64,000 nucleotides of DNA from Candidatus Thorarchaeota archaeon. GTDB taxonomy: Archaea > Asgardarchaeota > Thorarchaeia > Thorarchaeales > Thorarchaeaceae. The position numbers and the translations under genes were made by a program. Under the pieces are notes generated by a model. The model made no database searches, was not told where the DNA came from, and saw only the letters and a program-made list of their open reading frames with translations. The stretch covers positions 36,914 through 100,913 of the forward strand of contig SDNP01000006.1 of the NCBI GenBank assembly GCA_004524445.1. The letters run 5' to 3'. Positions 1 to 7,060 of the stretch are shown here, one piece after another. Each line of letters opens with the position of its first letter. Positions within the stretch are counted from its first letter, which is position 1.

Positions 1-1525
1 CATCGATGAAGGCTGTATCTGTGCTCCGTGTGAACGAAAATTCTTCCTCTAGGCCCAGATTTCTGAGGAGAAAACCTAGCTCATTCATCAGAATTGTGAG
101 ATTCACTTCACTATCAATGATAACCCCTGCCACTGATGGTACTTGCTTTGTTCGTGTCTCCTTTTCTTTGTCAGGAATGACGATATCTCCAATCTCGAAT
201 ATTTTTTGAGGGTAATCGGTATGCTGATTCTGAGAAACAAAGTCCAGCAGGATGGGGAGCAATGAATTCCTAAGAACTGAATAATCCCTGCTCTTTGGAT
301 TAAGCGTACGTACGAGCGCTCTATCCCTGAGCATTTTTTCGTTTAAGATCTCGGGCGAACTGAGAATATAGGACAGTATTTCTTGGTATCCTGCTCCGAT
401 AAGTAGATCCCTAATCTTGTCCTTCAATCGTGTTGTGGAAAGCAGCTTACCTCTTGTCATCGTTTCTGGCATAGTGGGTTGGATTTTATCGAATCCGTAC
501 CCAATAGCCACATCCTCAATAACATCTACAACATGCAAAACATCCACTCTATACGGCGGAATTTCCACCTCCACGGTTCCCTTGCCAATCGCCTTTCCTC
601 CATACCCCATCTTTCTTAGACATTCTAATACTTGTCTTGTTGTAAGGTCCAGACCTATGAGGCCATGAATTTCTCCAAGACCGAGATGCATTTTCGTGGG
701 CTCTAGACTTGGTGTGATAACACGTTTGCCATCGGGATAGTGTACCTCTACTGATTCGATGGTTCCTCCGCGTTCAACCAACGAAGTGAGCATAATATTG
801 AGAGCTTGGTTGACTGTTGGCAGGTGTGTACCTGTCACTTCTACAAAGATATTCTCTGTTTCTTCTGTTATTCTCCCCAAATCATTGCTGTTGATGATTG
901 GGGGGAGACTGAGTATCTTATTCTCGTCATCAACCAATAGTGGCCATTTCTTGAACTTCTCAATGATATATCCGAATTCTTGTCCTTTCTCATGTTTTCG
1001 GAGAATCTCCGGAGCCGTCATCGTTTCTTGATTACCCAGTGGGACGAACTCGATCTTTTCTGGTTTTTCTGCATAATACTTGACTGGAAACTCCAAGTCA
1101 TCATGGACATAGAGGCCGATTGAGGCATTGCGTCTGTTTCTTCCATGTGTTGAGGTTAATGCCTCCTGTAATCTCATATACTCTTTGATCAGTTCACTAT
1201 GGCTCTGAATACCCTTGACAATTCCACATGAGATATATCTCCTAATTCTTGCGAGCCCTCTCTTTACAATGATTTTCTTCCCCGAGGCAGCCACAGCATA
1301 GCGATGTGGTTCTGTATTGATTCCAATAAATGACTTGATGACTCGGGCTATCCCCTCCGCAGAAAGCATGTCTTGTCTGTCGGGGTTGATTTCGATCTGG
1401 ATTTGATTTCCTTTCACATCCTCAACTTCTGCCTTTAGGAGGAAGAGGGTTTCCTCAAGTTCTGACAAACTCATCTTTGTTCCGATCAATTCAAGCAAGT
1501 CATCTATTTTGCATTCCACTATCAT
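1..1525 (-). CDS. pheT: Phenylalanine--tRNA ligase beta subunit (3' end runs off the window)
   Basis: Not in the ORF track because there is no stop inside the window. Manual translation from ATG at 1525 gives MIVECKIDDLLELIG...IEINPDRQDMLSAEGIAR, an archaeal PheT N-terminus. Lies directly downstream of pheS. Confidence 0.95.
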   Translation of the reverse strand, partial: MIVECKIDDLLELIGTKMSLSELEETLFLLKAEVEDVKGNQIQIEINPDRQDMLSAEGIARVIKSFIGINTEPHRYAVAASGKKIIVKRGLARIRRYISCGIVKGIQSHSELIKEYMRLQEALTSTHGRNRRNASIGLYVHDDLEFPVKYYAEKPEKIEFVPLGNQETMTAPEILRKHEKGQEFGYIIEKFKKWPLLVDDENKILSLPPIINSNDLGRITEETENIFVEVTGTHLPTVNQALNIMLTSLVERGGTIESVEVHYPDGKRVITPSLEPTKMHLGLGEIHGLIGLDLTTRQVLECLRKMGYGGKAIGKGTVEVEIPPYRVDVLHVVDVIEDVAIGYGFDKIQPTMPETMTRGKLLSTTRLKDKIRDLLIGAGYQEILSYILSSPEILNEKMLRDRALVRTLNPKSRDYSVLRNSLLPILLDFVSQNQHTDYPQKIFEIGDIVIPDKEKETRTKQVPSVAGVIIDSEVNLTILMNELGFLLRNLGLEEEFSFTRSTDTAFID

Positions 1526-1532
1526 TGCGTGA

Positions 1533-3035
1533 TCACCTCAAGAAGTAATTCCTTCTTATCCAGCTCAAATCCCTGCTGTACAGTTCTCTGATATCACTAA
1601 TTCCCATGGATGCCATATACAATCGACCCGACCCTATTCCCCATGCGAGGACGCTATCCTTTATTCCCAAGGGGGCTGTAACTTCGGGTCTGAAGATGCC
1701 CCCCGGTGCCACTTCTATCCAGCCAAGTTCCTCATGCTTAGCGAAGCATTCGATGCTCGGTTCGGTAAATGGGAATTGCCCTGGTTTGAACTTCATTTTC
1801 TCTATGCCAACGCTCTCGACAATTTCAGTGATGTAACCCATTAAATCCTTCAGCGTCAAGTTAGCATCCATGATTATTCCTTCGCACTGATTGAATTCCA
1901 TAGCATGACTTGCGCTGAGCTTTTCCGACCTGAAATTTCTGTCAATAATGAACATCTTTTGAGGCGAGAGCCGGTTATCGTGAAGAAACCTCATCGAAAC
2001 GGGGGTGGTATGAGACCTAAGACAGAGTCTTGTTGATACCTCCTTGCTGAATGAGGATTGATATCCCATAGACCCTGTATTGCCCCCGTCCTCATGAACA
2101 CTCTTCACTGCTCTGTAATACTTGTTATCAACTATATCTCCATGAGAATACGGCTTATTGACTCTGAACTGGTCCTGAATTTCTCTGGATACGTGATCTT
2201 GCGGTACGAAGAGGGCATCGTTGTTCCAGAATTCAGTTTCCACATATGGGCCAAACCACTCTTCAAATCCTAAACCAATCAGTATTTCTTTCAGCCAGTC
2301 ATTGAATTCGGCATACGGGTGTTTTCGACCAAGAAATACTGGGGCTGGGTGTGCCTCTACGTTGAATGGCTTAAATTCAACTTCTTCCCAGGTACCTTCC
2401 ATAATCATATCCGGAGTGAGATGAATTACTCCTCCGCCTTTCTCAGAGATTAGGCTTCTTACCATTTCACTGTCAATAATCTCGGCTTCAAACCTTTTTC
2501 TGGTTGACTCTTCTATGAGTGTGCGTGAAAGGGCTTCTTGTTTTGCCTGTTCTAAATCTTCGGGAACATCACCATTCTTGGACAGATGGGAAAGGAGTGC
2601 CTCTATTTCTGAATCCGCATTCTTTGTGACGGTTTCAAGCACAGTATCCCCATTTTCTTTTCCAATCTTTAGCCAGCCCTTCTTTCTAGCCCAATTGATT
2701 GCAATCCCTTTTTCGCGTGCTGTAAGCCCACCTCTTTCCACCGCATCATCTAAGGTTGCTCTGTCCTGTAACTCCTTAACTGCATTAAAGAGTCTGATTT
2801 CTGGGAGACCATGACTTTCATACTCAAAGCCTTCATCGGTCAGATGATAGGATGGTATTTCTTCAATTTCTAATGAAACCAATTTTCTTTGGTCAAGCGA
2901 ATTCAGGATTGAAATTACTCGTTCCTTCTTGTCCCCTGTTCGCTTAGATAACTCCTCCGCACTGACTTTCCCGGAGGTAGCGTGCATTTCCTCCAAGACT
3001 CGCTGTTCTCCTTCTGTTAGTTGCTGTTTAGCCAT
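1533..3035 (-). CDS. pheS: Phenylalanine--tRNA ligase alpha subunit (archaeal/eukaryotic long form)
   Basis: Class II aaRS motifs LRSHTT, FRSE...HAMEFNQCEG, FPFTEPS and AWGIG; N-terminal winged-helix extension. Confidence 0.97.
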   Translation of the reverse strand: MAKQQLTEGEQRVLEEMHATSGKVSAEELSKRTGDKKERVISILNSLDQRKLVSLEIEEIPSYHLTDEGFEYESHGLPEIRLFNAVKELQDRATLDDAVERGGLTAREKGIAINWARKKGWLKIGKENGDTVLETVTKNADSEIEALLSHLSKNGDVPEDLEQAKQEALSRTLIEESTRKRFEAEIIDSEMVRSLISEKGGGVIHLTPDMIMEGTWEEVEFKPFNVEAHPAPVFLGRKHPYAEFNDWLKEILIGLGFEEWFGPYVETEFWNNDALFVPQDHVSREIQDQFRVNKPYSHGDIVDNKYYRAVKSVHEDGGNTGSMGYQSSFSKEVSTRLCLRSHTTPVSMRFLHDNRLSPQKMFIIDRNFRSEKLSASHAMEFNQCEGIIMDANLTLKDLMGYITEIVESVGIEKMKFKPGQFPFTEPSIECFAKHEELGWIEVAPGGIFRPEVTAPLGIKDSVLAWGIGSGRLYMASMGISDIRELYSRDLSWIRRNYFLR

Positions 3036-3380: not shown

Positions 3381-4460
3381 ATGTCACTTGCTCGACAGAA
3401 ACTGAAGAGGAAGATTGAGCAGTTGAAAGAATATCAGGGTCGACACAGCTCCTTCACTACTCTTTATGTTCCCCCAACAAAGAGCCTGACCGATGTCATC
3501 AGCTTTGTCAGGGATGAGCTTGCTGGCGCAGAGAACATAAAAAGCAAAACGAATCGGAAGAATGTTTCTGATAATCTGACTGCGATTCTTAGTGAGTTAA
3601 CAAGAATCGGGCAAATGCCGGACAACGGGCTTGCTTTCTTCTTTGGGATTGAAGAAGAAGGAGGTACAGATGAGGAGATTAGAGAGATTGTTGTTCCTCC
3701 GATGCCAATCTCACAATTCAACTATGTATGTGGCAGGGAATTTGATACAAGCGAACTGGAAGCCATGACGGTCCCAAAGAGCCTTGTTGTGATAGTTCTC
3801 ATAGAGGGCGGAAAGGTAACGATAGGTTATCTCCGCGGAAAAAGCATCGAGCTAGTGCGCGACGAAGATTTTTACATCATTGGCAAGACACGAGCTGGTG
3901 GGCAGAGTGCAAAACGGTACCAGCGTATTCGTGATGAGAAAATCCACGAATTCTACAAGTATGTAGCAAACATGCTTGAGGAACTTCTTGTCGAGAATAT
4001 TGATAATGTTGATGCTATTGTTCTGGGCGGAAACACAATCCGGGCACAGGAATTTCTTGAGAAGGGTGGCCTAGACTATCGATTGAAGGAGAAGATTGCG
4101 GATAACATCATATCTGTTGGGATGGTTGATGAATCAGGTCTCTATCAAGCTGTGAAAGAGGCATCTCGAATAATGCGAGAAACCGAGATTTACGAAGAAC
4201 GACACGCCTGGGACGAGTTCATGGAATCACTGATGAAGGGTGATAGAACGGCAACTTATGGCGAGGAAGAGGTTCTAAGGGCTCTGCGCAACGGGCGAGT
4301 GGAAACTCTAATGATTACAGAAGACAAAACAGAGTTAATCGACGAAATATATGATGAATTGGAGAAGTTCGGGACCGATTTGATGATATTTACACCCCAG
4401 ACCGAATCAGGTGCTCAGCTGCAGAACTTTGGAGGCATCGCAGCCAATCTGCGATGGTAA
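3381..4460 (+). CDS. prf1: Peptide chain release factor 1 (aRF1)
   Basis: NIKS, YxCxxxF (YVCGREF) and GGQS motifs; ends FGGIAANLRW. Confidence 0.96.
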   Translation: MSLARQKLKRKIEQLKEYQGRHSSFTTLYVPPTKSLTDVISFVRDELAGAENIKSKTNRKNVSDNLTAILSELTRIGQMPDNGLAFFFGIEEEGGTDEEIREIVVPPMPISQFNYVCGREFDTSELEAMTVPKSLVVIVLIEGGKVTIGYLRGKSIELVRDEDFYIIGKTRAGGQSAKRYQRIRDEKIHEFYKYVANMLEELLVENIDNVDAIVLGGNTIRAQEFLEKGGLDYRLKEKIADNIISVGMVDESGLYQAVKEASRIMRETEIYEERHAWDEFMESLMKGDRTATYGEEEVLRALRNGRVETLMITEDKTELIDEIYDELEKFGTDLMIFTPQTESGAQLQNFGGIAANLRW

Positions 4461-4464
4461 TGCC

Positions 4465-4875
4465 TCATTTTGGCGGTTCCGGCAGATCCGTAAGCGTTTC
4501 GATATCTATTATCCAGTTGTTTAGTGTTTCAGATATTTCATTCATGTATTTCATCAGCTGGTCATGAAATTTAGTCAAGTGCTCTTGAGGAAGTTTTGAT
4601 GATTTCTTCTTGAAATCACTCACACGTTTAGGCAGCCCAGCCTTCCATTTCTTGAGACTCAGTGTTACTTTCCTGTCTTTGAGAACTTTTCTTGCAACTC
4701 GAGATTCCAGCCTAAGTTCGAGCAATTCTTTTGTGGTGGTTTGGATGCTGATTGCTGCCACAACCAGCTCTTTCACATCTGCCTTGGTATCTTTGTTCCT
4801 GGTTCTATAGTATATTTCTTTGAGATCCCTCTTCGCAGAGAGTACATCACTCAGGAAAGTTCTCAGCTCTTTCAT
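4465..4875 (-). CDS. Hypothetical helical, Lys-rich protein
   Basis: 136-aa ORF tightly packed after the Cas4-like pair; no recognised motif. Confidence 0.7.
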   Translation of the reverse strand: MKELRTFLSDVLSAKRDLKEIYYRTRNKDTKADVKELVVAAISIQTTTKELLELRLESRVARKVLKDRKVTLSLKKWKAGLPKRVSDFKKKSSKLPQEHLTKFHDQLMKYMNEISETLNNWIIDIETLTDLPEPPK

Positions 4876-4893
4876 ACCTCTTCACTATCCCTA

Positions 4894-5577
4894 TCAGTCA
4901 TTACTCTTTTGCTTTGCTTTCGACCACCTACAGAGCTGCTTTGATGCATATGGACATGTGCTGCATTTATGGGGATTTGGCGAAGCTTTAGGCTCTCTTC
5001 CCTCGAACCAATACGGATCCAACTTTTCAAGATTCATCATGGTTTGCTTGGGCGAGAAGCTATCTTCGAAAACTGCACTTTTGTCACAACTCAGGCAAAA
5101 TGCCATTGACCTATTGTGCTGACATTTCATTGCATCTGCCTGGCGACAATATATTACAACAACCTTCGTTGTGCCACAACTCACACCTGAATCCATCAAT
5201 GCAAGTGCATACAGCGATGTTTGAAAGACGTCATAATGATGAGCTCTACTCGGAAGATGAGCTGAGGGAAATTTCCTCTCAAAAACGACATCCAGAATGG
5301 CTGAATCTTCCCAATGCAGAATTGCCATATCGAACCTTCCTTTGAATCGCTTGGAAATCGAATAGACACTCTCCTCTGTAAAGACGAAATAGTCACCCGC
5401 TCTCGTTTCTAATGGCTTCTTCGTAATGAATTGCTTCAAAGACGTTTGGGTGACTGATGACTGTTTAACGAGCTTGGTTAGCTTGCTGGGTCTGCCATGA
5501 ATCAACCCGTGGATGGCAACTAATGATAGCACCAAGAATATCAGGAACATGAGAGAGTGGGAAATTGCATCAAGCAT
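4894..5577 (-). CDS. Cas4-like PD-(D/E)XK nuclease core with N-terminal TM helix (C-terminal half of a split Cas4)
   Basis: GRFD (motif II), ERK (motif III), QTSLY (QxxxY) and C-terminal CSTCPY...C; hydrophobic N-terminus LMFLIFLVLSLVAIHGLI. Confidence 0.8.
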   Translation of the reverse strand: MLDAISHSLMFLIFLVLSLVAIHGLIHGRPSKLTKLVKQSSVTQTSLKQFITKKPLETRAGDYFVFTEESVYSISKRFKGRFDMAILHWEDSAILDVVFERKFPSAHLPSRAHHYDVFQTSLYALALMDSGVSCGTTKVVVIYCRQADAMKCQHNRSMAFCLSCDKSAVFEDSFSPKQTMMNLEKLDPYWFEGREPKASPNPHKCSTCPYASKQLCRWSKAKQKSND

Positions 5578-5578
5578 C

Positions 5579-5833
5579 TCAGAACACTATCCAGAAGAAT
5601 GCGACTAGAATCGCTATGAAAAGAAACAACCACCGAATAGAATTCCCTCTATCAGGTGAGAAGGATGAGCTATTCGTTGCATTTTCATGTAATAAAGTAC
5701 CCGTCACTCCTGATGCCAATTGAGCTGACCCATATTTCCTTCTCAAATGCAGACGATATTCACAAATGAGTTGAACCTTGAGTTCAGAAACGGTTCGATA
5801 CTCATCTGGATAATTCATAGATGAGCTTCTCAT
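5579..5833 (-). CDS. Small membrane protein carrying the Cas4 N-terminal motif (N-terminal half of a split Cas4); start may be 5818
   Basis: TVSELKVQLICEYRLHL...GTLLH matches the Cas4 S-x7-C...G-x3-H segment; C-terminal TM helix WLFLFIAILVAFFWIVF. Confidence 0.75.
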   Translation of the reverse strand: MRSSSMNYPDEYRTVSELKVQLICEYRLHLRRKYGSAQLASGVTGTLLHENATNSSSFSPDRGNSIRWLFLFIAILVAFFWIVF

Positions 5834-5881
5834 GGGCTTTCCACTGAAGTTGTACCAGTCTCACACTCAAAAACTGCACAC

Positions 5882-7060
5882 TTATTCCTTGATGAAAAAT
5901 ATTAACGGAATACTTGACAGAACAAAAATCAGTGGTACAATCAAAGCATTCTGTAAGCCAACACCCGGAATGTCTGCAACATACCCTGTTATGAGTGGAC
6001 CAATTGTCCCACCAAAGAAAGCAAAAATTGCGGAGATTCCAAAGAGTCTTCCTTCCATGCCGTCTGGAATGACTTTGGCATATACAGCTCTAGATATGCT
6101 CAAGTTTCCCCCTAGTGCGAATCCCGCTATCGAGGCCACTATTGGATTGGGCAGTATTCCCCCACCGAATAGGACGGCTGCAATCCCTACACTCCAAAGC
6201 GCTAAATTCAGCCCGAGGACCTTCACAAGCCCGATTCGGTCCCCCAATTTGCCATGGAAAAAGGCCCCCAACAATGCACCAGGCAATGCCATAGCTAAGA
6301 AAAGAGTGGCATTAGTGGCGGCTATTTGTAAAATATCTACCGCAATCAATGAGGCAAAGGTTACAATAGTGGAAACTGCATCGCCCCAGAGTATTGAGGC
6401 AATCAGGAACACTGCAACGGATCTATTACTACGAATCTCATTCAGAGTTCTTGATATTCCAGCGACGAGATTCCTCTCAAGCTTCTGTTCTCTACTAGTA
6501 TCTTCTAGATAAACTGCGGGGATAATTGAAAACGTCATCAGGAAGACGGCGATGAAGAGAAGTGCACTTGCTCTCCCTACTACTGTTTCTATTATCACTG
6601 ATCCGCCTGCTCCTAATGCGCCTCCAAGGTATCCAAGTAAAATACCAAATCCCGATGTTTCTCCTAGTTTAAATTCCTCAGCTTCAGCCGCTAGAAACGA
6701 ATTTGCTCCGATCCACCCTGTTTGTATAGCGGTTGACATCACTCCAAATGCAAGAATTATACGGAAAAGTGAGTTGGAAATGCCCATGGTCACAATAGCA
6801 ATCGATGCAACTAGTGAGGAGAAAAACAAAATCCCGCGTCTGAGTCTAGTGCTATCTTCACTGAAATCAATGAAATTTCCCACAACTGGAGTCCAAAAAG
6901 CTGCCACCACTCCCGTTATTAGTGGCAACCCCCCAACCAGAAGATTCGTGCCACCTTGAGAAATAATGATGAGAGGGAGATACATAGAATTGACCGCAAA
7001 GGCAACTGGTGTCGTTGCGAAGTCATAGAATGCCCAGGCGACTTTCTGCTGCCTCTTCAT
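5882..7060 (-). CDS. MFS transporter (UMF1/Atg22-like)
   Basis: WAFYDFA N-terminus, about 12 hydrophobic segments, GKLGDRIG motif. Confidence 0.88.
   Translation of the reverse strand: MKRQQKVAWAFYDFATTPVAFAVNSMYLPLIIISQGGTNLLVGGLPLITGVVAAFWTPVVGNFIDFSEDSTRLRRGILFFSSLVASIAIVTMGISNSLFRIILAFGVMSTAIQTGWIGANSFLAAEAEEFKLGETSGFGILLGYLGGALGAGGSVIIETVVGRASALLFIAVFLMTFSIIPAVYLEDTSREQKLERNLVAGISRTLNEIRSNRSVAVFLIASILWGDAVSTIVTFASLIAVDILQIAATNATLFLAMALPGALLGAFFHGKLGDRIGLVKVLGLNLALWSVGIAAVLFGGGILPNPIVASIAGFALGGNLSISRAVYAKVIPDGMEGRLFGISAIFAFFGGTIGPLITGYVADIPGVGLQNALIVPLIFVLSSIPLIFFIKE

Follow-up and report, generated by a model that had tools for sequence, protein, structure and literature searches.

The window analysed here is the whole of a 64,000-nucleotide (nt) stretch of DNA from a Candidatus Thorarchaeota archaeon (contig SDNP01000006.1), and our subject is a pair of adjoining genes within it that a reading of the sequence alone had described as a two-chain, doubly membrane-anchored, Cas4-like iron-sulfur (Fe-S) nuclease. 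All genes of interest lie on the minus strand. The small subunit gene (5579-5833) encodes a protein of 84 amino acids (aa), in which an N-terminal Cys helix and a GxxLH element are followed by a C-terminal tail anchor, and it ends in a TGA at 5579-5581. A single base later (5578), in the arrangement TGA-g-ATG, the large subunit gene (4894-5577) begins with its ATG at 5577-5575 and encodes 227 aa, with an N-terminal signal-anchor helix preceding a PD-(D/E)xK core. A third gene (4465-4875), encoding a basic helical bundle of 136 aa, lies 18 nt downstream of the large gene. These three open reading frames (ORFs) and the 1-nt junction are where the sequence-only reading had placed them. In public records the orthologues appear only as 'hypothetical protein, Candidatus Thorarchaeota archaeon'.

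We propose, with a probability of roughly 0.78, that the two abutting or overlapping genes specify the separate chains of a single PD-(D/E)xK nuclease of the Exo5/Cas4 type, held on the cytoplasmic face of the membrane. The basis for this proposal is computed: homology, collinearity, a conserved split, the helices and their orientation, and a confident model of the interface. To our knowledge, nucleases of the Cas4, Exo5, AddB and Dna2 types are soluble single-chain domains in which the cluster staples one chain. Here the domain would be cut inside its fold, with a membrane helix on each piece and with cluster ligands and active-site residues divided between the chains. The split layout is a fixed feature of an entire family within the Asgard archaea, the prokaryotes most closely related to eukaryotes.

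Conservation of the split gene pair

The layout was compared at two levels. In 22 genus-level loci from the same family as the window genome, the small, large and third genes are syntenic without exception (22/22), and the small and large genes are separate in every one. A scan of one genome per species gave 56 Thorarchaeota/Promethearchaeota loci, and in 54 of these the profiles of the two proteins match two adjacent, distinct open frames. Of the remaining two loci, one lies at a contig end and the other is disrupted by an insertion element. The sequence-only reading had asked whether the split and both membrane helices recur in other genomes or whether the orthologues are single ORFs. The split recurs in these 54 species loci and the helices in every orthologue examined, and none of the 54 has both halves in one open frame.

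The way in which the two frames meet is variable. The frame offset between them is +1 in 28 loci and +2 in 25, and in one locus it is 0 with an intervening stop. The junctions in relatives take the form TGA-g-ATG, TGATG, TAATG, ATGA overlaps or gaps of a few bases, and the spacing ranges from -7 to +9 nt in 17 of 19 loci, values that depend on the start codons chosen. Varied junctions with overlaps are the usual signature of translational coupling, and neither a sequencing error common to all loci nor one recoding signal could produce them. Judged by these junctions, the small and large genes appear to be translationally coupled in nearly all loci. Two loci have peculiarities of their own. In one (L016, G024:C3) the usual stop of the large gene is a sense codon, which adds about 50 residues and produces an overlap with the start of the third gene. 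Another split pair (L050) comes from a record labelled 'Candidatus Hermodarchaeota', although its similarity places it with the Thorarchaeota loci; a taxonomic error or the binning may account for the label.

A protein joining both parts was not found in searches of 5.8 billion sequences or of 1.84 billion representatives. Word-index searches, whose results are weak evidence, returned proteins of 191-227 aa only in the near length range and no match among longer proteins, whether queried with the large protein or with the small-protein alignment. A hidden Markov model (HMM) scan of the 1.84 billion representatives found no relative with both the N-terminal Cys motif and a hydrophobic helix. 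Strong relatives (E below 1e-30) are all 132-252 aa long, and those called at full length begin with a hydrophobic helix.

The sequence-only reading had also proposed mapping reads across the junction at 5575-5581, and this check came out clean for part of the data. Contigs of DNA reads from three runs in two studies contain no indels; the junction itself is spanned by the probable source run only, while two independent sediment runs cover parts on either side of it, also free of indels, and do not reach it.

Homology and active-site residues

Curated profiles point to the Cas4 and Exo5 families at low significance. The Cas4 model TIGR00372 gives E 0.22 and 11.3 bits against the window proteins (cut-off 65), and the PF01930 Cas4 profile gives no match to them. 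In the PHROGs and PADLOC collections the large protein has weak Cas4 model matches only; the PADLOC Cas4 model reaches E 2e-4, over model positions 59-164 of 168 only. The curated Exo5 profile PF09810 does not match the large protein, and it matches three of 19 small proteins weakly (best E 0.013). Among solved structures, the best sequence match of the large protein is human EXO5 (E 0.0025).

The relationship becomes clear through a family of distant single-chain proteins, found by running the large-protein profile against the 1.84 billion representatives. These are archaeal 'solo' nucleases of 240-290 aa from metagenomes (P0030-P0084), which pass the Pfam cut-offs for Exo5 (PF09810) and/or PDDEXK_1 (PF12705). 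Compared by hhalign, the small family aligns with single-chain positions 32-73 (probability 96.8%, E 3.1e-10; small residues 14-55) and the large family with positions 107-256 (probability 99.7%, E 1.9e-26), so that the two aligned regions are collinear and do not overlap. When run against the genome of the window, the single-chain profile matches just the two ORFs, in the correct order. A lack of Cas4 similarity in the small ORF had been named as grounds for doubting the sequence-only reading; the small protein in fact aligns with the N-terminal Cys/His element of the single-chain relatives.

The solo nucleases and the split pair have in common 16 invariant residues in a collinear alignment, with the pattern Cys1, E, G...H, G..D, ExK, Q...Y, W...R and C-x2-C-xn-C. 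In the single-chain family all 16 lie on one polypeptide, without a hydrophobic helix; the counterparts in the pair are divided into four on the small chain and 12 on the large. Where the pair has the break and both membrane helices, the solo nucleases have a soluble helical linker of about 30 residues. In other Asgard families (L025, L026), both half-profiles match one ORF without a hydrophobic helix, from which we conclude that the ancestor was a soluble single chain and that the split and both helices were derived in the Thorarchaeota family.

The small-chain counterparts are C24, E25 (nearly invariant), G45 and H49; across 19 genera-level orthologues of the small protein the invariant residues are L18, Q21, C24, L30, G45, L48 and H49. 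The codons from C24 (5762-5764), the putative first Fe-S cysteine, to H49 (5687-5689), the motif-I histidine, span 5687-5764, and C24, G45 and H49 align with C55, G76 and H80 of the single-chain relatives. H49 closes the GTLLH element (G45-x3-H49). By analogy with the Cas4 protein SSO0001, for which one report gives His62, Asp99 and Glu113 as metal ligands (PMC13621843), H49 would be a ligand of the catalytic metal.

On the large chain the counterparts are G80, D83, E100, K102, Q119, Y123, W190, R194, C205, C208 and C216, all of them invariant, together with L127, which is assigned by its alignment with a single-chain leucine. The catalytic motifs lie at 5209-5331 and are invariant in 21 orthologues: D83 (motif II, in the string GRFD), E100-x-K102 (motif III, ERK) and Q119-x3-Y123 (QTSLY). 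These five residues align with the single-chain invariants D128, E142, K144, Q158 and Y162. The triad C205-x2-C208-x7-C216 (4930-4965), the putative Fe-S ligands 2-4, is likewise invariant and aligns with C253, C256 and C262 of the single-chain relatives and with the Cys motif of human EXO5. Between catalytic motifs and triad lies an insert with four cysteines, C144-x7-C152-x8-C161-x2-C164 (5086-5148), each invariant in 21 orthologues. This insert is lineage-specific and is missing from most single-chain relatives, although a few of them (P0030, P0031, P0045) have a Cys-rich insert at the same place with other spacing. Thus every motif quoted by the sequence-only reading, the four-Cys insert included, is present and invariant across 19-21 genera-level orthologues.

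The expected one N-terminal and three C-terminal cysteines are therefore present but on two polypeptides, C24 on the small chain and the triad on the large. In AddB, the Fe-S cluster forms an 'iron staple' that ties parts of one chain together. The iron-staple domains of AddB, AdnAB and Dna2 differ from the pair in being parts of large helicase-nucleases, and their staple ties one chain, whereas that of the split pair would tie two.

As the closest matches are of the Exo5/PDDEXK_1 type, with human EXO5 among them, we call the enzyme Exo5/Cas4-type and not Cas4. The core of the earlier description, a two-chain, doubly anchored Fe-S nuclease, stands, and its attribution to Cas4 is one part that we would change. 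CRISPR Cas4 proteins (SSO0001, 4IC1; Cas4-Cas1, 7MI4; type I-C, 8D3L) differ from the pair in being single soluble chains, with a sequence identity to the window protein of 13-16% in structural comparison. Human EXO5 (7LW7-7LWA) is also a single soluble chain, of about 370 aa, and the window proteins fall below the Pfam Exo5 cut-off. Neither Cas1, Cas2 nor PF01930 Cas4 was detected in the assembly, which is 90% complete, and the 64-kb window contains no CRISPR-like direct repeats, which agrees with the earlier statement that cas1, cas2 and an array are missing from the window. Full-text literature searches found no description of a split or membrane-anchored Cas4/Exo5 nuclease. A paper on Cas4 phylogenomics makes no mention of 'split' or 'transmembrane', and it reports that about 90% of archaea have solo-Cas4 genes of unknown role that are inherited vertically (PMC5704561).

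Two further proteins came up in these comparisons. The genome encodes a second PD-(D/E)xK protein on contig C18 (L037, 1357-2088; 243 aa, PDDEXK_1 26 bits), which we rejected as a part of the split pair; it is unrelated and has no cysteine cluster. The closest single-chain relative with a Cys-rich insert, P0086, lies on an ENA contig (L040) beside genes for AP (apurinic/apyrimidinic) endonuclease 2, a NUDIX protein and an RNase T-like protein, a context that hints weakly at a role in repair.

Membrane topology and the modelled complex

Each chain has one hydrophobic helix, at the edge where the fold is cut. In the small chain it comprises residues 66-84 at the extreme C-terminus (5582-5638), with a Kyte-Doolittle mean of 2.58 over 19 residues. 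The same helix scores 2.2-3.5 in the 19 orthologues and is followed by only 0-4 residues, none charged, which indicates that the small chain is tail-anchored; as expected of such proteins, it has no N-terminal signal sequence, and its only membrane helix falls within the final ~25 residues. In the large chain the helix comprises residues 8-26 (5500-5556), with a mean of 2.57 (2.0-3.1 in 22 orthologues). The stub before it is 0-9 residues long and, summed over the 22 sequences, contains 0 K/R and 13 D/E, against 60 K/R and 12 D/E in the 15 residues past the helix. By the positive-inside rule, this charge bias orients the large chain N-out/C-in and puts both soluble parts in the cytoplasm. The sequence-only reading had recognised that halves on opposite sides of the membrane would undo it; the charge bias places them on the same, cytoplasmic face, which is where an Fe-S enzyme acting on DNA has to be. 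Taken together, the helices resemble the two arms of a membrane hairpin that was cut in its outer loop, and this is probably what they are.

The AlphaFold2 model of the large protein (pLDDT 86) has a long N-terminal helix, two short helices and a PD-(D/E)xK core, so that the core fold is present in the large chain. Its best Foldseek matches are Cas4 8d3l (E 2.4e-4), SSO0001 and human EXO5, and in the ESM Atlas the closest cluster belongs to an archaeal Exo5/PDDEXK_1 family (TM 0.62). The structural match begins at residue 54 of 7mi4 and residue 63 of SSO0001, immediately beyond the N-terminal Cys helix and His62, the part that the small protein resembles. In every solved relative this N-terminal helix packs on the core, and it is absent from the large protein.

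We modelled the two chains as a complex, with a 4Fe-4S cluster included. The ipSAE of this model is 0.85, against 0.01 for the best control; the runs share at least 76% of their contacts, and the partner pLDDT is at least 65. The mark applied to this score is attained by 58 of 80 solved complexes and by two of 110 mismatched pairs. In the model, small-chain residues 11-37 face large-chain residues 77-81, the QxxxY helix (114-123), 182-190, 196-200 and the region of the Cys triad, where large-chain residues 204, 208-210 and 215-216 touch small-chain residues 21-31.

The mechanism we envisage is as follows. The tail-anchored small chain would supply the first Fe-S cysteine, C24, and the GxxLH histidine, H49, and the large chain, held by its N-out/C-in signal anchor, would supply D83, E100-x-K102, Q119-x3-Y123, C205, C208, C216 and the four-Cys module. 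The two helices would stand in for the severed membrane hairpin, and the soluble parts would complete one nuclease domain in which both the [4Fe-4S] cluster and the active site need residues of both chains. On the analogy of the single-chain enzymes, we infer that the cluster and the catalytic metal site would form only in the heterodimer. If this assembly is true, the pair would be a natural case of two membrane proteins joined by an Fe-S cluster. It would then also offer a tractable way to study the use of tail-anchored proteins in archaea, and point to an as yet unknown handling of DNA at the archaeal membrane.

Objections, possible role and alternative readings

Several points weigh against the proposed two-chain nuclease. 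The large protein scores 19.5 bits against PDDEXK_1, below the cut-off of 22, and the small protein has no Pfam match. Cluster binding, nuclease activity and action on free DNA ends near the membrane are each predicted from the family. The halves belong to a fold with solved single-chain structures, so that the pass of the complex model shows likeness and not binding, and it may reflect the memory of the predictor. H49 and both membrane helices fall outside the confidently placed interface residues, and the apparent convergence of the four cysteines is drawn from contact lists only.

The pair is also dispensable. Genera g12 and g15 yielded no copy of it, and three genomes of genus g3 have a small gene that is disrupted, each at a position of its own. 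In one g3 genome (G018; L008, G018:C80; G018:C145:883-987) it is broken at profile position 34/35 with the large gene open; in another (G211; L023, G211:C355) it is broken near position 67 by more than 8 kb of inserted DNA that includes a TnpB-like gene, again with the large gene open; and in a third (G003; G003:C39:21873-22013) a remnant of the small gene covering positions 1-47 is left and the large gene is gone. At least two of these interruptions adjoin a TnpB-like (IS200/605-type) gene. A fourth g3 genome (G222; L024) has both nuclease genes intact. The single-chain profile found no replacement nuclease in g12, g15 or the genomes of the sister family, f2. The large gene is otherwise present as a single copy in 65 of 76 genomes of one Thorarchaeota family, and 224 further genomes of the phylum gave no strong match to it. 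The losses in g12, g15 and g3 indicate that the pair, although conserved, is not essential; such a pattern would be more usual for an accessory or defence function than for core replication.

The sequence-only reading had suggested DNA uptake, defence or a gated nuclease, roles that are speculative. What such an enzyme might do can be considered from its relatives, which mostly act on free ends of single-stranded DNA. A membrane-bound version would, speculatively, meet such ends at the cell periphery, for example in entering viral or plasmid DNA, and surveillance or processing of linear DNA that enters the cell is our best, though tentative, guess at its role. A more specific idea, which we regard as doubtful, is that the split is itself functional. 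The tail-anchored chain, inserted on its own, would carry the catalytic histidine and one of the cluster ligands, so that activity would arise only where and when the two chains meet. This would give an assembly-gated, end-dependent nuclease that protects the cytoplasmic side of the membrane from linear DNA coming in. In this it would be a prokaryotic counterpart of TREX1, a DNA exonuclease tethered to the cytosolic membrane face by a C-terminal anchor (PMC12316019). The likeness is a functional analogy only: TREX1 has an unrelated DEDD fold, is a single chain without an Fe-S cluster, and is eukaryotic.

Among the alternatives, the one that survives best, unlikely as we judge it, is a three-component system in which the 136-aa protein is a third subunit or a regulator, as the sequence-only reading had suggested. 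That reading was right that the protein is basic (30 K+R against 20 D+E). The gene lies immediately downstream of the large gene in every nuclease-bearing locus, and its product is more conserved than the nuclease, with a mean column identity of 59% against 50% and 40% for the two chains. Its distribution, however, follows another neighbour. It occurs in 70 of the 76 family genomes and in f2, always tail-to-tail with the gene for the archaeal release factor aRF1, and it persists in g12, g15 and f2, where the nuclease halves were not detected, and intact in G003, where only the small-gene remnant survives. It also has a conserved motif of its own, CAAAAGAGTAAT (general form CAAAAGAGTMAT), at 4900-4911 on the minus strand, inside the 3' end of the large gene and 24 nt before the third ATG. 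In about 18 of 21 loci the CAAAAGAGTMAT motif precedes the ATG by a constant 24-26 nt, a spacing that would fit an archaeal promoter with a near-leaderless transcript, and we take it to be probably the promoter of the third gene. An upstream motif of its own and its presence without the nuclease make the third gene most likely independent, and we therefore regard it as probably a neighbour and not a nuclease subunit.

The AlphaFold2 model of the third protein (pLDDT 94) is a bundle of five helices with no DNA-binding or nuclease-related fold match; it belongs to no Pfam or NCBIfam family, its Atlas feature matches are all below 0.8, and the best PDB fold match, the IncA helical bundle, is not significant (E 0.03). 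A match to LmuB in the PADLOC/PHROGs scan (E 0.003) was discounted, as it lies in a coiled-coil region. The protein is specific to the archaeal order of the Thorarchaeota. In the one RNA run, a salt-lake metatranscriptome, two 151-nt contigs were found, both on the third gene (4569-4862, at least 99% identity); none fell on the nuclease genes, a result that says nothing on whether these are expressed.

Less likely again is that the two proteins do not assemble, with the large protein working alone, perhaps with a metal site in its four-Cys insert, and the small protein being a separate regulator or a decaying remnant. The two g3 genomes in which the small gene is interrupted and the large gene still open would fit this, as would a Methanosarcina solo-Cas4 mutant that reportedly remains active despite loss of its cluster (cited in PMC13621843). 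A decaying remnant is hard to reconcile with the invariance of C24, G45 and H49 across the 19 small orthologues or with genes that appear coupled in nearly all loci. The large protein, moreover, lacks the N-terminal helix that is packed on the core in its solved relatives, and the model of the complex is confident against its controls.

That the ORFs abut or overlap by a few bases could also be taken to mean that programmed frameshifting or stop read-through yields one polypeptide, with a membrane hairpin inside the nuclease fold. We consider this very improbable. The frame offsets and junction sequences differ among loci (28, 25 and one for the three offsets), so that no single recoding signal could serve all of them; at the junction the large ORF begins with a start codon of its own, and the large database searches found no fused protein. 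An assembly or sequencing frameshift, or a recently broken gene, which the 1-nt spacing might suggest, is scarcely credible given the same two-gene layout in 54 of 56 independent species-level assemblies, the indel-free contigs of the three DNA runs (at the junction, the probable source run only) and the invariance of all catalytic residues.

The two-chain nuclease genes are flanked by housekeeping genes, the two subunits of Phe-tRNA synthetase (2-3035) and aRF1 (3381-4460, plus strand). Upstream of the small gene lies a gene for a transporter of the major facilitator superfamily (MFS) type (5882-7060), and immediately after its stop, about 32 nt before the small ATG, is a promoter-like motif on the minus strand at 5866-5881, of the type GTGnnC(C)TTTTGAGG / GTGnnCCTTTTGAGG. 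Related motifs occur at a similar distance before the small ORF in most of 19 loci, and we infer that the motif acts as the promoter of the small gene. A scan for sigma-70 promoters and terminators, a method ill-suited to archaea, gave no excess over shuffled sequences. We conclude that the nuclease pair forms one transcription unit. The two upstream motifs (4900-4911 and 5866-5881) have a common CAAAAG/CTTTTG core in opposite orientations and may be promoters or sites for a common regulator.

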